52,500 nucleotides of DNA, from the UHGV virus genome UHGV-0197997; one strand, 5' to 3'. Numbering within the stretch: the stretch's first letter is position 1; the number at the start of each line of letters is the position of its first letter. The DNA is from a virus. The notes beneath the pieces are model-generated. The model saw only the letters and a list, made by a program, of their open reading frames with translations. It made no database searches and had not been told where the DNA came from. Below are positions 25,424 through 37,422 of this stretch, piece by piece. A program made the translations under genes and the position numbers.

Positions 25424-25704
25424 TAGTGCCTCAGTGTATCGACCAGGCGCGCCACGTTACCCCGTGCCCACAGCACGGCGGCGCAGATAAGGATGTTTGC
25501 CAGTACCACCAGCCAGTGGGACTGTACGTAAAGACCGAAGATAAACTGGAAGGGAATGCTCGCGTAAATCAGCACAAGCACATAAGCAAGTACGGAAATT
25601 CCTGGGCGATGCCGGGAACCGCGACGTTGATAAAACATCAACGCACAGACGATAACGACACAAATAACAGCATTGGCCAGTGCAGCAGGGTCATTTATTA
25701 CCAC
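25423..25704 (-). CDS. Holin (small 3-TM membrane protein)
   Basis: 93 aa with three hydrophobic helices and charged C-terminus; overlaps upstream membrane ORF. Confidence 0.6.
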   Translation of the reverse strand: MVINDPAALANAVICVVIVCALMFYQRRGSRHRPGISVLAYVLVLIYASIPFQFIFGLYVQSHWLVVLANILICAAVLWARGNVARLVDTLRH

Positions 25705-26086
25705 TCGAACCTCCTCCCCTAAATCGGGAAAGTATTCCGAACAGGCTGCTCAGATCCTGGCTGTTGATGAAAGTCAGGACCCTGATAGTGATAGCTGATG
25801 CCACCACTGCACCGAGCGCATCAAGCGGGCGGTCTGTATAGCCTGTCCAGGCAGTAAATTTTGAGCCTAATAGTCCAGCAGCCAGAACACCGACAATAAA
25901 CGATGTCATGAAGTAGGCTATCTGCCTCCCTCGTGTCAGGTTCGCGGTCGTTGCCACATAAAACACCGCACCACCAAAGGCTCCAAACACCACACCAAAA
26001 TCGGTATGAGTAATAACGCCATAAGCGACAGAACCAATTAACCCGCCTCCAAAAATAAGGCCGGTACCAGTTAAAGGATCGGACAT
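25691..26086 (-). CDS. Holin-like Gly-rich membrane protein (holin/antiholin candidate)
   Basis: 131 aa, multiple Gly-rich hydrophobic helices; first gene of lysis cassette. Confidence 0.5.
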   Translation of the reverse strand: MSDPLTGTGLIFGGGLIGSVAYGVITHTDFGVVFGAFGGAVFYVATTANLTRGRQIAYFMTSFIVGVLAAGLLGSKFTAWTGYTDRPLDALGAVVASAITIRVLTFINSQDLSSLFGILSRFRGGGSSGNK

Positions 26087-27161: not shown

Positions 27162-27309
27162 TGGACTTAATTAACGGCCAGAGTAAAGCAATTACTCCGG
27201 CCACCAGCACGCCATCTGCCAGGATGGACATCATTTTGCTGGTGAAGTCGATGGCAACCACCAAGAACAAAAGCACCCCGGCAGCGCCCCAGCGAAGTTT
27301 GCCAATCAC
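27154..27309 (-). CDS. Small two-helix membrane protein, 51 aa
   Basis: GTG start overlapping TerB-like stop as GTGA; hydrophobic segments GAAGVLLFLVVAI and GVLVAGVIALLW. Confidence 0.35.
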   Translation of the reverse strand: MIGKLRWGAAGVLLFLVVAIDFTSKMMSILADGVLVAGVIALLWPLIKSSE

Positions 27310-27728
27310 AGATACTGATCCAGAGGAAGCTGCAGAGCCTGGGAGATTTTCTTCAGAGCCACCTCTTCTTCTTCACCAATACCATCGTTATCTGCAATAT
27401 CCAGACAGAGGCAGAGAACATCCACTGCATCAGAGGTACCGGCAACATCAGCCAGTTGACGAATAGCTTCGGCGTTAGCTGAACGCGGGGAAGCTTCGTA
27501 ACGAGCGCGAATGTTCGAACTCATCTGGGCAATTTCACCAGCGAACGGGGCAAATGCCGGCAGCGCGGAGATAGTTTTCTCCAGTACCGCAATCTCTTTT
27601 GCATCACAGGTGCCATCCGCATACGCAATCGAGTATGCGCCCCAGACAGTTGCCTCTACCGCATCGCGGTTCTCCATCTTCTTAACTTCTGCTACTGCCT
27701 TACGTGCTTTTTTACCGAATCCAAACAT
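27306..27728 (-). CDS. TerB-like (tellurite-resistance TerB family) domain protein
   Basis: Two ADG-type motifs (IAYADGTCDAKE and LDIADNDGIGEEEE). Confidence 0.55.
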   Translation of the reverse strand: MFGFGKKARKAVAEVKKMENRDAVEATVWGAYSIAYADGTCDAKEIAVLEKTISALPAFAPFAGEIAQMSSNIRARYEASPRSANAEAIRQLADVAGTSDAVDVLCLCLDIADNDGIGEEEEVALKKISQALQLPLDQYL

Positions 27729-28038: not shown

Positions 28039-28114
28039 TGGTGCTGGTTGACGGAATCGAACCACCGACATCCTACTTACAAGGCAGGTGCTCTACCTAC
28101 TGAGCTAAACCAGC
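28039..28114 (-). tRNA. tRNA-Thr (anticodon UGU), phage-encoded
   Basis: Hand-folded cloverleaf: acceptor GCTGGTT/AACCAGC, D-arm GCTC-AGTAGGTA-GAGC, anticodon loop CTTGTAA, T-loop TTCGATT, encoded CCA; T-stem needs two wobble pairs; 5' end overlaps methyltransferase stop by 10 nt. Confidence 0.55.
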
Positions 28115-29154
28115 AAATTGCGCATTTCACTGACCGTCTGTTCAAACCGCTCGGTTTCCAGTTCAACGCCGATTCCACTCCGCCCGAGTAGAGCAGCTTG
28201 CTTTAGTGTGGAACCAGAACCAGCAAAGAAATCAGCTACGACCTCCCCCGGCCGACTGCTTGCAGTAATGATCTGCTGGAGCATATCGGCAGGTTTTTCG
28301 CATGGGTGCTTACCTGGGTAGAACTGAACAGGCTTATGAGTCCACACGTCGGTATACGGCACCGAGACGGAAACACTAAACGGCCTCCGCAGGCAGTGAT
28401 ACTCCTGCTGAAGTTCGCAGTATTTCCGGTTAAGAGATTGCCATGTTGCGACAAGCTGGTGATGGGGCTTAGCAAGTTCGTTTCGTGAGTGTTTATCTCT
28501 GGCAATTTGCTGGAACAACGTCTGCAATTTCAGGTAATCGGCTTCGTTCGGTAACTGCCACTGGCTAAGACCGAACCAGTGAGAAACCATGTTTTTCTTA
28601 CCTGTGGCAACTGTAATTTCTGCTGACGTTACTCCAAGAGATTCTCTGGCTTCCCGGAAATAGGAAATCAGTGGAGTCATGACATGCTGCTTGAGTTCAT
28701 TGCTCTTAGCAGCAAACCCATCATCTTTCGGATTATATGGCCCTTGATAATGATCGGCGAAAATGATGCGCTCCGTCGCAGGGAAATATGAGCGCAGGCT
28801 CTCTTTGCTGCATCCGTTCCAGCGCCCGGAAGGTTTTGCCCAGATAATATGGTTAAGCAGGTTAAAACGCTCGCGGACCAGTATCTCAATGTCCGCCGCC
28901 AGCCGGTGCCCGCAGAAAAGATACATGCTGCCCGAAGGTTTCAAAACCCGCCAGAAGTGGGCCAGACAACTATCGAGCCATCGCAAATAGTCATCATCCC
29001 CATTCCATTGATTGTCCCAACCGTTCGGCTTCACCTTAAAGTAAGGCGGGTCAGTAACGATCAAGTCGATGGAGTTATCTGGAAGCGATGGAAGAAATTG
29101 CAGGCAGTCAGCATTGATTAACTCAATACTGGATATTTTTACAGTATTTTTCAT
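28105..29154 (-). CDS. DNA methyltransferase, beta-class (N6-adenine or N4-cytosine), orphan
   Basis: DPPY motif (LIVTDPPYF) N-terminal to SAM motif DFFAGSGST; no adjacent restriction gene. Confidence 0.8.
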   Translation of the reverse strand: MKNTVKISSIELINADCLQFLPSLPDNSIDLIVTDPPYFKVKPNGWDNQWNGDDDYLRWLDSCLAHFWRVLKPSGSMYLFCGHRLAADIEILVRERFNLLNHIIWAKPSGRWNGCSKESLRSYFPATERIIFADHYQGPYNPKDDGFAAKSNELKQHVMTPLISYFREARESLGVTSAEITVATGKKNMVSHWFGLSQWQLPNEADYLKLQTLFQQIARDKHSRNELAKPHHQLVATWQSLNRKYCELQQEYHCLRRPFSVSVSVPYTDVWTHKPVQFYPGKHPCEKPADMLQQIITASSRPGEVVADFFAGSGSTLKQAALLGRSGIGVELETERFEQTVSEMRNLLV

Positions 29155-33523: not shown

Positions 33524-33925
33524 TCAACCTACCACTGAACAAACATCCAGCGCTTTTCTATAAGCCGATATAGTGATTTCTACCCGCCCTCCTTTAACAT
33601 TCTCGCCCCACTCTATAGCCATGCGTTTTACCTGGCTGTCGTCCTCCCAGATCCCGGCATAGGTCAAAGCATCGAGCAGGGCCTTGTTGTAATTATCCAG
33701 GTCTCGCCGGCGGTAATCCGGCGGGTAAAGAATAATTTCTACAGCTGCTGGTGCCGATGAAGGCTTTGGTATATCTCGCAATTGCTCAATGACCGCTGCC
33801 CGCACCGCATGCTTAAACTTGCGGCCTGCCGCACTGACAAGAAGCTTGCCTTTTGCGGGCCCCTTATTTGGGGATCGCCAATAGGCATTCACGCTGGGCG
33901 GAAAAGGAAGTAAAAATTTCATCAC
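33524..33925 (-). CDS. rusA: Holliday junction resolvase RusA
   Basis: N-terminal PPSVNAYW motif and ~130 aa size typical of RusA. Confidence 0.8.
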   Translation of the reverse strand: MMKFLLPFPPSVNAYWRSPNKGPAKGKLLVSAAGRKFKHAVRAAVIEQLRDIPKPSSAPAAVEIILYPPDYRRRDLDNYNKALLDALTYAGIWEDDSQVKRMAIEWGENVKGGRVEITISAYRKALDVCSVVG

Positions 33926-34395
33926 TCCTCCAGTACCATTTTAAGTTCGAAAGGCAAGTCGCCACCGCAATAGCAGAGTTGCCCCAGCTCTGACATGAGG
34001 CTCCATAGGGTCATTGACGAATAGCCATTTTCGTCAGTCGCCGGCGGCTCAAATTCACCAAATATTCCTGGCGCACGAGCTCGATTTTCATCGTGTTGGG
34101 CCTGCATAAACCTCAGGGAGATATCATTCAACTTCACCTTTACGATGCTGTTGAGGTTAACTGAAACCTCCCTGGTTAAAAGCGAAGTGGTGATGCTGAT
34201 ACCGCGGGAAACCCCGCGGGTAATCTTGATGGCCCCTTTTCTCTCCAGCGCCTTGAGGTGGGTTGCCGCCGCATTGGGGGACCGGCACCCCAACATGCCG
34301 GTCAGTTCGTAGGTGGTAGGCGGGAAACCATGCTTACGTTGGTACTCGATCAGGAGGTTCAGAACCTCCTGCTGCCTGAGAGTTAACTTCATCAT
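33922..34395 (-). CDS. LexA N-terminal-like DNA-binding protein without S24 peptidase domain
   Basis: MKLTLRQQEVLNLLIEYQRKHGFPPTTYELTGMLGCRSPNAAATHLKALERKGAI closely resembles LexA DNA-binding domain; C-terminal half lacks Ser/Lys peptidase motifs. Confidence 0.55.
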   Translation of the reverse strand: MMKLTLRQQEVLNLLIEYQRKHGFPPTTYELTGMLGCRSPNAAATHLKALERKGAIKITRGVSRGISITTSLLTREVSVNLNSIVKVKLNDISLRFMQAQHDENRARAPGIFGEFEPPATDENGYSSMTLWSLMSELGQLCYCGGDLPFELKMVLEE

Positions 34396-36479
34396 GCTGC
34401 CCGCTCCTGTTTGTTAACGCACATTTCTGGCAGATTGGCCCTAACCAGCGCCTCAGCGAACGGCGGCGGCACGGCGTTTCCGCAGCGCGCAACCTGCTTG
34501 TCCTTCGAATACTTCACGCCGCGGTAGTCCCGGTCGATGATGTACCACTCAGGGAAGCCCTGCGCGCGATAGAGCTCATGCGGTTGCAGCATGCGCATCC
34601 CGATATCAACAATTCGGAACGTAACGCCGTCAATATCCACCAGCCCGGTGCTGTCCTCCCCGCAGTATTCCCGCAGAAATGCCAGCACCTGCTGAGCGCG
34701 CTCTTCGTCGTAGTCCTCGACCGCCAGTGTCGTTTTAACCTCTCCAACATGCTGGCCCCCGGCGGTAATTGTCGGCATCGGCTCGTCAGCGCGCTGACCA
34801 TCACGACAGGTCCCACGCAGTTTGACCAGGTGGGATGAGACTATTGCGGCATCGGCTTTAGTGGTCATTGTCTGCAGCGGCTCGCTAACATCACGCGGGC
34901 GGCTCTGCCCTGCTCGCCCACCAACGCCAACAACCTGGGCTGTAACCAGTGCATGATGATCAATCGTCGTCACCGAGTGGGCGGGCTCACCCAGTCCTAC
35001 GCCGGCGCCCTGATAATTCCCGCCGTAGTGTTTAGCCAGGAACGCCCCGACAACAGCATGCTTTCCGCCACCAGCAACAACGGTACCCAGCGGTTTGTCC
35101 AGCCCTGGCACGCGAGGTGCCTGCCCTGGTCGTTCTCCGTATCCCATCTGAATCAACGTCGGCACAACCAGTTGCGATTTACCGCCGCCGCCGGCGGTGA
35201 TTGTTGCACTGGGCTCGTCGGCGCGATGACCGATGCTTGCGCCAAACTGGCGCGCAATGACCGGCGCAACGATACAGGCGCGGGACTCTTTCAGGATGGT
35301 GTGAGCAGGTTTATCCAGTGGCCGTGGCTTAGCCTGGTACTCGCTGCCACCATTTCCGGCCAGGAACGGCGCCAGCTCAGCTTCAACGACACCCAGTGCA
35401 TGACCATTCCCGCCCGGGCGTTTTGACGTGCCGGCGGTCACCGTAGGTACCGGGTCGGTAACTGGCTGCCCGGTGGCACCGGTGCGGAATTTTGTCAGGT
35501 GAGGTACCGCGATTGCGTACCCATGAGTTTTGGTAATGGTCTGTAGAGGATCGGCCAGGGCCTGCCCCCGAAAACAGTCGTATTTGCCACGGGTGGTTGT
35601 GTGGTTGCATTTCACAATGAATGGATCCGCGCTGTCGATAACGAAACGCTGAATGCCGCGGGCTATGCGTTTGAGCGTATTCTCTGCCAACGGCTTTTTG
35701 CGGTCGAATATCGACCGCGCGGAAATAGTCCAGTCGATGCATTCCGCCGCGGTGCGAAACGGCGCCAGCTTGCCTGCCTGCACCGCCGGCGATTTCGGAT
35801 CCCCGTGTGTAGCCTCCGGCCAGACAATAGGCTGGTCATCACGACGCATCACCATGAAGAATCTTTTACGGATGGTTGGGGTTCCAAGGTCGGATGCACG
35901 CAGTTCACGGCAATCCAGATCGTAACCAAGCCCCGAAATCAGCCGCTGAGCCTGCTCGCTTTCCAGCGAGAGCTCCAGAAATTCGCAGCACTCTACCAGC
36001 GCAGGATGATCAGCAGGAATGCCAGTTGTTAGCATGCCGACAAATGCCCGGAATGTTTCGCCAACGCGCGCAGGGTCTGGGCGCATTTCTGCCGCCAGCA
36101 GCGGGCCCCACGTTTTGAACTCCTCCACGTTCTCCAACATCATCACCCGTGGGCCAACATCCAGGGCCCAACGAATGACAATCCACGCCAGCCCACGGAT
36201 GGCTTTTTCTACAGGCTTCGCCCCTTTCGCCTTCGAGAAGTGGCGACAATCTGGCGAAAACCAGGCGAGACCTACAGGTTTGCCGCTGGTGGCAGCTGCA
36301 GGAGAAACATCAAACACGCTTTCGCAATAGTGCAATGTGTCAGGATGGTTAGTGCGGTGCATGGCCACGGCGTTCTCGTCGTGGTTAATAGCAATATCAA
36401 CGCTGCGCCCGATCGCCATTTCGATCCCGGTTGATGCCCCGCCGCCGCCAGCAAAATTATCAACAATCAGCTCACGCAT
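34392..36479 (-). CDS. DNA cytosine-5 methyltransferase-like, 695 aa, with repeated TAGG-containing internal motifs
   Basis: Motif I FAGGGGASTG, ENV motif, motif IV-like SPDCRHFS (DC instead of PC), C-terminal RCGNAVPPPFA; four internal repeats of the TxTAGG type. Confidence 0.75.
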   Translation of the reverse strand: MRELIVDNFAGGGGASTGIEMAIGRSVDIAINHDENAVAMHRTNHPDTLHYCESVFDVSPAAATSGKPVGLAWFSPDCRHFSKAKGAKPVEKAIRGLAWIVIRWALDVGPRVMMLENVEEFKTWGPLLAAEMRPDPARVGETFRAFVGMLTTGIPADHPALVECCEFLELSLESEQAQRLISGLGYDLDCRELRASDLGTPTIRKRFFMVMRRDDQPIVWPEATHGDPKSPAVQAGKLAPFRTAAECIDWTISARSIFDRKKPLAENTLKRIARGIQRFVIDSADPFIVKCNHTTTRGKYDCFRGQALADPLQTITKTHGYAIAVPHLTKFRTGATGQPVTDPVPTVTAGTSKRPGGNGHALGVVEAELAPFLAGNGGSEYQAKPRPLDKPAHTILKESRACIVAPVIARQFGASIGHRADEPSATITAGGGGKSQLVVPTLIQMGYGERPGQAPRVPGLDKPLGTVVAGGGKHAVVGAFLAKHYGGNYQGAGVGLGEPAHSVTTIDHHALVTAQVVGVGGRAGQSRPRDVSEPLQTMTTKADAAIVSSHLVKLRGTCRDGQRADEPMPTITAGGQHVGEVKTTLAVEDYDEERAQQVLAFLREYCGEDSTGLVDIDGVTFRIVDIGMRMLQPHELYRAQGFPEWYIIDRDYRGVKYSKDKQVARCGNAVPPPFAEALVRANLPEMCVNKQERAA

Positions 36480-37422
36480 GGCTCACCCCCTGCATGCTTT
36501 CAACCAGTCCACCAGCAATAGCGATGATTTCACTGGTGGGCATACGCTCCAGCCAGAGCTGGTTAATATGTGCTTTCAGCCTGTTTTGATGGGACAACTC
36601 CATCCCTTCAGCTCCTTCAACCTGTCGAAACAACAGCCCTACTTCCAATGGCCAGATACGTGATTCCGTCGCCGGTAATTCCACAGGCGCTGCAGGTGGT
36701 TCTACTGCCGCCGCCGGCGCTGTTACTTGTGCTGGAATATTGCCAACAGCAAACTGCGCCAGCCTCATGAATGCATGACCCTTAGCTTCCAGATCGGACC
36801 GGTGGATATAGCTGAAACGCTCGCCTCGCCATGACTTATCAAACACAACAATGGCACCAGCGAAAAATGCGCTGGTGGGCTTTTGCTTATCATCAGCAGG
36901 GATAAACCACGAAGGTAGATCGAATCCAATTCGACCACGAATAAACATGATGTGATCAGCATCTTCCGGCCACCATGTTTCGCTTGTTGCTGACTTCACA
37001 AGGTAAATGTAGCGACCGCCCTTTTCACGCTGCTCAGTGGTATAGTTCATGATATGAGCCATGCCGGTGATGGCTTGTTTTTCATGGTACTGCGAGCGAC
37101 TGTACGGCGGGTTAGCAAAGGCCGCGCCGCCGAGTTCTACCAGGCGACCTGACCAGTCCTGCGTCAGCGCATTGTCTTCAGCGGTGTACCATGCCGGGCA
37201 TTTTGCGTTGCTTTCGTCAGCGAACAGATCCAGAACCAACGGACCGAACATCGCGTTGATCCCCCAGAACAGTAGATCCGGAGTACGCCATTGATCCCCT
37301 ACATCTTTCAGGTAATGGGCGCTGCACTGGCGCTGTTCTTCAAGAGCCAGGCAATAAGGGCTGACAGTCTTAGCTTCGGTATTTTCTTCTTCGATCATCA
37401 TGTCCTGCACTTCCTGGATCAT
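36472..37422 (-). CDS. DNA N6-adenine methyltransferase (phage Dam-like)
   Basis: NPPY motif (FANPPYSRS); overlaps C5-MTase start. Confidence 0.7.
   Translation of the reverse strand: MIQEVQDMMIEEENTEAKTVSPYCLALEEQRQCSAHYLKDVGDQWRTPDLLFWGINAMFGPLVLDLFADESNAKCPAWYTAEDNALTQDWSGRLVELGGAAFANPPYSRSQYHEKQAITGMAHIMNYTTEQREKGGRYIYLVKSATSETWWPEDADHIMFIRGRIGFDLPSWFIPADDKQKPTSAFFAGAIVVFDKSWRGERFSYIHRSDLEAKGHAFMRLAQFAVGNIPAQVTAPAAAVEPPAAPVELPATESRIWPLEVGLLFRQVEGAEGMELSHQNRLKAHINQLWLERMPTSEIIAIAGGLVESMQGVSHA

Follow-up and report, generated by a model that had tools for sequence, protein, structure and literature searches.

A lambdoid prophage C5-cytosine methyltransferase with an array of eight target-recognition-like repeat units and its likely role in anti-restriction

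The viral genome UHGV-0197997, of which we analyzed the whole 52,500-nt stretch (hereafter the window), is a lambdoid prophage of Raoultella/Klebsiella that carries three DNA methyltransferase (MTase) genes. Our analysis centers on one of these, which encodes a 695-amino acid (aa) C5-cytosine MTase with eight repeat units arrayed between its catalytic motifs VIII and IX, the region that constitutes the target-recognition domain (TRD) of C5-MTases. This protein is an orphan MTase; indeed, among the Pfam- and PHROG-annotated neighbors, no endonuclease partner adjoins any of the three MTases. We consider it fairly probable that the 695-aa protein is an orphan phage enzyme that methylates cytosines at multiple sites by means of its unit array and that functions in anti-restriction. 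This multispecific, anti-restriction reading is supported because full-length homologs that harbor the same motif IV and the same type of array were shown, or are cited, to have relaxed specificity. A preliminary description of the window had put forward the same idea, and to that extent it stands, whereas its notion that each repeat is a recognition domain of its own goes further; that the individual units are separable specificity modules is in our view possible but doubtful. The three open reading frames (ORFs) lie where that description had placed them:

34392..36479, minus strand: ORF for the orphan C5-cytosine DNA MTase of the 'SPDC' phage clade, 695 aa (PF00145; phrog_23072/phrog_116, 'DNA methyltransferase')
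36472..37422, minus strand: Dam-family (PF05869) phage N6-adenine MTase, 316 aa (PF05869, TIGR01712, phrog_111)
28105..29154, minus strand: third MTase, beta-class N6_N4, 349 aa, between Q and the lysis cassette (PF01555)

In Raoultella ornithinolytica there is a protein with 100% identity to the 695-aa protein, which is also 90-99% identical to many Klebsiella/Raoultella proteins. The C5-MTase profile PF00145 matches the enzyme with 71.7 bits (cut-off 22), while the stricter profile TIGR00675 gives 47.9, under its cut-off of 100.65. The catalytic motifs, which follow one another in the canonical C5-MTase order, are located as follows:

36438..36455, minus strand: motif I, FAGGGG (S-adenosylmethionine binding), aa 9-14; F9, G11, G13 and G14 are invariant in 81 representatives
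36234..36257, minus strand: motif IV, SPDCRHFS, aa 75-82; aligned to GPPCQGFS of PDB 3g7u
36126..36134, minus strand: motif VI, ENV, aa 116-118; invariant in the 81 representatives
35862..35870, minus strand: motif VIII, RKR, aa 204-206; aligned to the R-x-R of 3g7u, with R204 and R206 invariant
34464..34607, minus strand: motifs IX-X (DIGMRML..QGFP..GNAV), aa 625-672; predicted local distance difference test (pLDDT) above 90

Within the last of these, QGFP occupies aa 640-643 and GNAV aa 667-670. In an AlphaFold2 model computed from the alignment of the 81 representatives, the catalytic domain, comprising aa 1-288 and 600-690, is predicted with confidence, its pLDDT being mostly above 85. When this model was compared with the PDB by Foldseek, all 50 matches listed were members of the C5-MTase family, including 3g7u, DNMT1, MET1, M.HaeIII, M.HhaI and DNMT2 as well as one C5-carboxymethyltransferase (8yf3). 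Thus, the assignment to the C5-MTases that had been made earlier from the FAGGGG, ENV and GNAV motifs is borne out, and the profile searches did not place the protein outside this family, the outcome that the preliminary description had named as damaging. By its sequence, then, the protein is a C5-cytosine DNA MTase whose catalytic Rossmann core is conventional but for motif IV and motif II.

Alignment to 3g7u identifies C78 as the catalytic cysteine, which is invariant in the 81 representatives, but in the D77-C78-R79 segment an aspartic acid takes the place of the canonical proline and an arginine that of the glutamine, such that the canonical Pro-Cys-Gln context is lost. In motif II, the same alignment shows an asparagine in place of the glutamic acid. 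The SPDCRHFS sequence, which had been noted earlier as a variant motif IV, is therefore present as described; however, it is not peculiar to this gene. An exhaustive HMMER search of clusters built at 50% identity retrieved 7,899 clusters at an expect value (E) of at most 0.001, of which 2,454 had E<1e-30, and in the best 150 clusters SPDC[KTR]H[FH]S is the motif IV almost without exception. Residues P76, C78, N32, H33, E116, N117, V118, R204 and R206 are invariant in the 81 representatives. The clade-wide retention of this motif IV, together with the motif II asparagine, indicates that they are the hallmark of a large phage/prophage clade under purifying selection. This clade comprises widespread enzymes of ~450-840 aa, encoded by phages and prophages whose hosts include Proteobacteria and others. 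The hosts of phage records that carry the family include Klebsiella, Escherichia, Citrobacter, Pectobacterium, Aeromonas, Vibrio, Pseudomonas, Burkholderia, Ralstonia, Rhodobacter, Paracoccus and Nostoc, among others.

The repeat array occupies the stretch between motif VIII and motif IX, and its units, of 32-48 aa (~35 aa), are delimited as follows:

34704..35573, minus strand: eight TRD-like repeat units, aa 303-592, with a PxxT[IVM] anchor in each
units 1-4: aa 303-334, 335-382, 383-414 and 415-454
units 5-8: aa 455-490, 491-525, 526-558 and 559-592

The preliminary description had counted four repeats of a TxTAGG type. These are real, but they make up only half of the array: the pattern T[VI][TV]AG occurs at aa 346, 426, 466 and 570, in units 2, 4, 5 and 8, and at least four such repeats were found in none of 20,000 composition-preserving shuffles of the sequence. 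The protein contains exactly eight copies of the broader anchor P..[TS][IVLM], all between aa 311 and 571 (at aa 311, 343, 391, 423, 463, 499, 534 and 567); the mean of the shuffled sequences is 0.56, and again none of the 20,000 reached eight. The units come in two flavors, PxxT[IV]TAGG.. and PxxT[IVM][TL][KT]xxxxA[IL]V. A hidden Markov model (HMM) of the unit, trained iteratively on the family and with the consensus GQSVDEPLPTVTAGGHHALVAAFLVKYYGG, recovers all eight units of the query at 16-40 bits each. In this layout, a P-x-x-T-[IV] strand is followed by a variable, often glycine-rich loop and then by a hydrophobic strand, with P7 and T10 of the unit profile conserved in at least 90% of units. 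Direct repeats at the DNA level are negligible in the C5-MTase gene, and units 4 and 8 are the only pair within the protein with a detectable match. The array is thus ancient, and for the same two reasons a recent duplication was rejected as its origin.

The proteins of this clade that have been studied experimentally come from Paracoccus and Aeromonas phages. Two 5-methylcytosine (m5C) MTases from prophages of Paracoccus aminophilus, JCM7686_0772 and JCM7686_2655, were cloned and, in the passages of Dziewit et al. 2014 (PMC3925955) that deal with them, are described as having relaxed substrate specificity. According to the same source (PMC3925955, Additional file 8), they conferred partial protection against 16 cytosine-sensitive restriction enzymes: AluI (AGCT), BglI, Bme1390I (CCNGG), BsuRI (GGCC), CaiI, EcoO109I, EcoRII (CCWGG), Hin6I (GCGC), HpaII and MspI (both CCGG), HpyF10VI, NciI, PauI, PvuII, TaiI (ACGT) and XhoI. 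In contrast, 12 other sites, including CGCG, GATC, GGNNCC, CCWWGG, CATG and CCATGG, are recorded there as fully cleaved. Two P. aminophilus database proteins, P0344 and P0345, encoded on a 3.6-Mb chromosome, are 68-69% identical to the Paracoccus phage protein Pyei1_p05, which matches the corresponding passage of PMC6536676. Both proteins have SPDCKHFS as motif IV and an array of 7-8 units, and over aa 4-693 of the query their identity to it is 39% (E 1e-157 to 1e-160); Pyei1_p05 has 8 units. From Aeromonas, ARM81mr_p29 and ARM81ld_p31 are cited as m5C MTases of relaxed specificity (Decewicz et al. 2017, PMC5537653). Their motif IV reads SPDC[KR]HFS, each has five units, and their identity to the query is 41-45%.

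Taken as a group, the Paracoccus and Aeromonas enzymes thus resemble the 695-aa protein over their full length (39-45% identity, E 1e-122 to 1e-160), in the SPDC[KR]HFS motif and in the PxxT[IV] array between motifs VIII and IX, and they too are the products of orphan genes in temperate phages, often located beside replication genes. They differ in their hosts and in the number of units, five in Aeromonas and 7-8 in Paracoccus compared with eight here, with other loop classes. It had also been suggested that repeats shared with ordinary monospecific homologs would undermine the multispecific idea. Repeats are indeed found in nearly all clade members, in 1-12 copies, yet the tested members have turned out not to be monospecific.

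Across the family, the unit HMM identified 1,049 units in 151 proteins, with 1-12 units per protein. Protein length correlates with the number of units (r=0.55 in the first HMM pass, a value confounded by inteins). Each unit is closer to units of other proteins than to its own neighbors, and the best matches are located at different ordinal positions. Community clustering resolved about 11 major unit classes, which recur in many orders; blocks such as 'EF' are frequent, and the C-terminal unit pair ('BD') is conserved, although in the query the normally conserved last unit ('D') is replaced by a helix plus a hairpin. Moreover, relatives with 61-96% identity to the query differ from it by exact, in-register insertions and deletions of whole units:

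P0071: +37 aa relative to the query
Klebsiella phage Kp4866-6: -39 aa relative to the query
Escherichia phage Flotzy: -35 aa relative to the query
Citrobacter phage phiNP: -45, -39 and -35 aa relative to the query
P0121, 93-100% identical to the query where aligned: the head of unit 4 (GHRADEP) is joined in register to unit 8 (MPTITAGGQ), with four units removed

This unit architecture and its in-register indels appear to be undescribed in the literature on these enzymes: a term search of PMC5537653 found no mention of repeats or TRDs, and the passages on MTases in PMC3925955 and PMC6536676 likewise contain none.

The survey of the clade yielded two further observations. The record of Bacillus phage phi105 (KY197768.1) contains an unannotated clade match with 52.6% identity over 86% of the query; such a match would not be expected in a Bacillus phage, which raises the possibility of a mislabeled or chimeric record. 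The clade also contains members of 930-1113 aa, which were considered as candidate Dam-C5 fusions resembling the Dmt protein of phage P1. This was ruled out, as those checked (P0127, P0189, P0191, P0261, P0265, P0159 and P0202) carry inteins with a Hint domain and a LAGLIDADG homing endonuclease. The intein immediately precedes the catalytic cysteine of motif IV, at the junction ..VHN|C[KT]HFS, such that this cysteine doubles as the +1 extein residue.

Comparison with better known C5-MTases places the units in context. Residues 250-257 of M.HhaI read TLSAYGGG, as verified in its sequence; they reportedly form recognition loop II, and T250 is said to position the flipped base. M.HhaI and other monospecific Type II C5-MTases share the fold and the order of motifs I-X with the 695-aa protein, and the TLSAYGGG loop is patterned like the TxTAGGG units. 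However, these enzymes have one TRD of ~80 aa instead of a 290-aa array, contain P-C-Q rather than D-C-R in motif IV and usually have a partner endonuclease. The textbook example of tandem TRDs that share one catalytic core and confer several specificities is provided by the Bacillus-phage enzymes (PMC8936443; PMC12707154). These proteins, M.SPRI, M.Phi3TI, M.Rho11sI and M.H2I, are also phage orphan C5-MTases with tandem T[LIV] elements of ~40 aa between motifs VIII and IX. In contrast to the query, they have the canonical SPCQ motif IV, are 439-503 aa in length and contain only 3-4 elements; M.SPRI, M.Rho11sI and M.H2I each have 3-4 elements of the PT[IL]T type, compared with eight 32-48-aa units. 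They also methylate discrete sites fully, whereas the clade of the query gives partial protection. The last element of M.SPRI before motif IX, GEPAFTVNTIDRHGVAV, aligns to unit 6 of the query, GEPAHSVTTIDHHALV, in a 19-aa high-scoring segment pair (HSP; E=0.006). We regard this likeness as an apparent resemblance and do not claim TRD homology from it.

In the most elaborate proposal, the array is a combinatorial cassette, in which each ~35-aa hairpin or short block (such as the 'EF' pair) would act as an autonomous mini-TRD with its own T250 equivalent and loop, and the in-register gain, loss and recombination of units would tune the anti-restriction spectrum. We offer this as a tentative proposal that is more doubtful than not. 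Several observations weigh against the multispecific, anti-restriction reading as a whole. In the AlphaFold2 model based on the 81-sequence alignment, pLDDT is 25-55 over the query array, and it is 42-67 for the units of P0241, a minimal clade member (472 aa) selected to give a clean alignment of the two conserved terminal units. A profile built from 102 diverse units had no match in the PDB. The modeling suggests that the units are disordered without DNA, and they may become ordered only on DNA. With the Bacillus enzymes, BLASTP yields only two short HSPs (E 0.005-0.006), and the unit HMMs gave no significant match on M.SPRI, M.Rho11sI or M.H2I. The closest homologs with experimental data are only 39-45% identical to the query, the homolog Phi2LM21_p23 was inactive in E. 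coli (PMC5537653), and the m5C chemistry attributed to the clade was deduced from restriction protection only. Finally, the protection by the Paracoccus enzymes, as recorded in the relevant part of PMC3925955, is partial at every protected site, whereas the Bacillus multispecific enzymes methylate their sites fully (PMC8936443); partial protection fits a discrete set of TRDs no better than it fits an enzyme of loose specificity.

A composite, weakly discriminating array is indeed the main rival. In such an enzyme, the whole array would form one composite DNA-binding domain, for example an open beta-hairpin solenoid, with weak base readout or a role in processivity. The weak readout would account for relaxed methylation of short degenerate contexts, and the units would be structural spacers whose number tunes reach or affinity. 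The toleration of in-register deletions and even of chimeric units, as in open solenoid repeats, and the positional conservation of the C-terminal unit pair agree with this explanation, as does the incomplete protection in the Paracoccus assay. What counts against it is the complete cleavage of the twelve cytosine-containing sites in that assay (CGCG, GGNNCC, CCWWGG and CCATGG among them), which shows that recognition is not just loose, as well as the retention of discrete loop classes across distant hosts in varying order and the conservation in the units of the threonine equivalent to T250 of M.HhaI (P7/T10 in at least 90%). We judge it somewhat unlikely. That the protein is instead a standard C5-MTase with a single specificity and a TRD of unusual size, and that its repeats are irrelevant to specificity, is very unlikely: although a T[LIV] followed by a glycine-rich loop is also found in monospecific enzymes such as M.HhaI, four tested clade members are reported to be relaxed, and a range of 1-12 copies with unit indels among near-identical alleles is hard to fit to one fixed recognition surface.

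Two other explanations concern what the methylation is for and whether it takes place. The main role of the enzyme could be regulatory, with methylation marking the phage DNA for replication, packaging or expression, as in phage P1, which needs Dam methylation at pac, supplied by dmt (PMC12707154). The gene does lie in the replication module near O and is coupled to the gene for the Dam-family enzyme, and a replication role was speculated on by Decewicz et al. (PMC5537653). Yet relaxed multi-site methylation would be a poor regulatory signal, three broad or non-specific MTases in one phage fit protection better, and the Paracoccus phage homologs, in the portion of PMC6536676 that covers them, sit in other modules; we therefore view a chiefly regulatory role as unlikely. 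It is also conceivable, though highly improbable, that the D-C-R of motif IV and the asparagine of motif II render the protein inactive or direct it to another chemistry, such that no m5C is formed or another group is transferred. The departure from the near-universal Pro-Cys, the TIGR00675 score below cut-off and the existence of natural C5-carboxymethyltransferases such as 8yf3 point in this direction. Set against them, the clade-wide conservation of the variant motifs indicates purifying selection, enzymes with an identical SPDCKHFS motif block m5C-sensitive endonucleases, and 8yf3 is no closer to the model than is any other C5-MTase.

The multispecific, anti-restriction reading also accords with the genes that accompany the C5-MTase. 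The gene immediately upstream encodes the Dam-family enzyme, which matches PF05869 with 150.9 bits (cut-off 28.1) and TIGR01712 with 188.6 bits (cut-off 97) and contains NPPY at aa 104. As had been noted earlier for this Dam-like NPPY enzyme, the two genes overlap, and the overlap is 8 nt (ATGCGTGA, 36472-36479, minus strand), with the Dam stop codon over the start codon of the C5-MTase and a purine-rich stretch just upstream. We read this arrangement as probable translational coupling. In the annotations of Citrobacter phage phiNP and Escherichia phage Flotzy, the enterobacterial lambdoid relatives that were examined, the two genes share the same 8-nt overlap, whereas Paracoccus phage Pyei1 lacks this coupling. 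A Dam-type and a C5-type module are reportedly also combined in one locus in P1, as the single fused polypeptide Dmt, whereas here they are encoded by two overlapping ORFs; P1 Dmt is not among the best 45 of 122 phage matches to the C5-MTase.

Two side observations concern the Dam-family proteins. The enzyme in the window has a C-terminal extension of ~90 aa (aa 225-316) outside PF05869, which corresponds to phrog_16025. Its Flotzy ortholog (locus L006 2674-4008) is a 444-aa fusion with a 3'-phosphoadenosine 5'-phosphosulfate (PAPS) reductase-like domain and is annotated as a PAPS reductase (phrog_33262).

The third MTase, likewise recognized earlier as an orphan DPPY enzyme, matches PF01555 with 137.6 bits and has DPPY at aa 35 and FAGSG at aa 310, the beta-class order. 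It is 75.9% identical to its homolog in phiP27, about 75% to those in Stx2a phages and 53% to the adenine MTase of phiARM81ld. Two proteins of this group, ARM81ld_p56 and PhiOS31_p25, methylate adenine in most contexts, and the phiP27 protein is a homolog with 67% identity to PhiOS31_p25 (PMC7556043). M.EcoGII, a non-specific enzyme of 349 aa with the beta-class order, is encoded on a lambdoid prophage and is silent in the lysogen (PMC5778455). M.EcoGII and its relatives (phiP27, PhiOS31_p25 and ARM81ld_p56) share with the third MTase the length of 349 aa, the succession of DPPY, TRD and FxGxG and the location in lambdoid/Stx-type prophages. The likeness to M.EcoGII itself rests on length and domain order, as the percent identities given here refer to the phiP27, Stx2a-phage and phiARM81ld relatives only. 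The third MTase is thus probably an M.EcoGII-like enzyme, which would methylate adenine non-specifically.

On the minus strand of the window, the genes are arranged in the order CII-like activator, O-like replication protein, PerC-like protein, Dam, C5-MTase, LexA N-domain protein, RusA, KilA-N protein, Q, third MTase, tRNA-Thr, TerB, holin, endolysin and spanin, with the CI repressor on the plus strand, divergent from the CII-like activator. The Dam and C5-MTase genes are therefore in the early-right (nin-like) operon, and the late operon opens with the gene for the third MTase, right after Q. This order (O, Dam, C5-MTase, Q, 350-aa MTase and holin) is kept in Citrobacter phage phiNP. Consistent with these positions, all three MTase genes should be expressed only in the lytic cycle and be silent in the lysogen, in line with what was argued for M.EcoGII (PMC5778455). 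Sequencing the methylome of the lysogen, as the preliminary description had proposed, is thus a weak check: because all three genes are in lytic operons, the methylome of the uninduced lysogen would probably be negative, and virion DNA would be the right sample.

Operon position and family precedent together suggest how the three enzymes might function. After induction or infection, expression of the early-right operon would yield the C5-MTase, whose translation would be coupled to that of the Dam-family enzyme encoded upstream. Its units would be offered to one catalytic core as alternative or cooperating recognition elements, such that cytosines in many sequence contexts would be methylated. 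The M.EcoGII-like, non-specific adenine MTase would act later, from the head of the late operon. Together, the enzymes would leave the progeny phage DNA methylated in advance against the Type II restriction systems of the next host and, through N6-methyladenine, also against those of Types I and III. A set consisting of a Dam-type enzyme, a relaxed m5C enzyme and a probably non-specific adenine enzyme fits the heavy, plausibly anti-restriction self-methylation that the preliminary description had proposed.

The C5-MTase itself is an unremarkable representative of a family for which broad protection of phage DNA from restriction has already been demonstrated, and it is part of a well-explained anti-restriction toolkit, not a new system. 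As an example of three broad-spectrum MTases stacked in a single genome, as occurs in many temperate phages of Klebsiella, Raoultella, Escherichia and Citrobacter, it bears on the host range of phages, on phage therapy and on how prophages spread through clinical Enterobacterales. Of greater interest is a by-product, the architecture seen across the family, with 1-12 TRD-like units, in-register indels and recurring loop classes. Should units correspond to specificities, this clade would offer a natural, highly modular system in which to study and engineer target recognition by C5-MTases, and if the combinatorial cassette proves true, up to 12 units per enzyme, far beyond the 3-4 TRDs of the Bacillus enzymes, would be served by a core with a non-canonical D-C motif IV.

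At the DNA level, megablast searches returned only partial phage matches, of 75-79% identity, and almost nothing among 5,426 E. coli genomes. Several neighboring features are also of note:

33922-34395, minus strand: LexA DNA-binding-domain protein, 157 aa
31003-32061, minus strand: ORF of 352 aa between the KilA-N gene and Q (phrog_96 'HNH endonuclease', E 6e-151)
28039-28114, minus strand: tRNA-Thr (TGT)
27306-27728: TerB-like tellurite-resistance gene, before the holin gene
25691-26086: holin

The gene for the LexA-domain protein overlaps the stop codon of the C5-MTase by 4 nt (ATGA). The family phrog_29443 spans aa 1-156 of the MTase as well as aa 30-157 of the LexA-domain protein, and this coverage implies that some phages carry a deletion that fuses the N terminus of the MTase to the LexA-domain protein. 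The annotations of the 352-aa ORF conflict, as phrog_96 denotes an HNH endonuclease, whereas the phiNP counterpart is labeled a second antitermination protein Q. The tRNA-Thr gene overlaps the final 10 nt of the third MTase ORF on the same strand. Together with TerB, it occupies the 'moron' position between Q and the lysis genes, the site that is taken up by the stx genes in Shiga toxin (Stx) phages.

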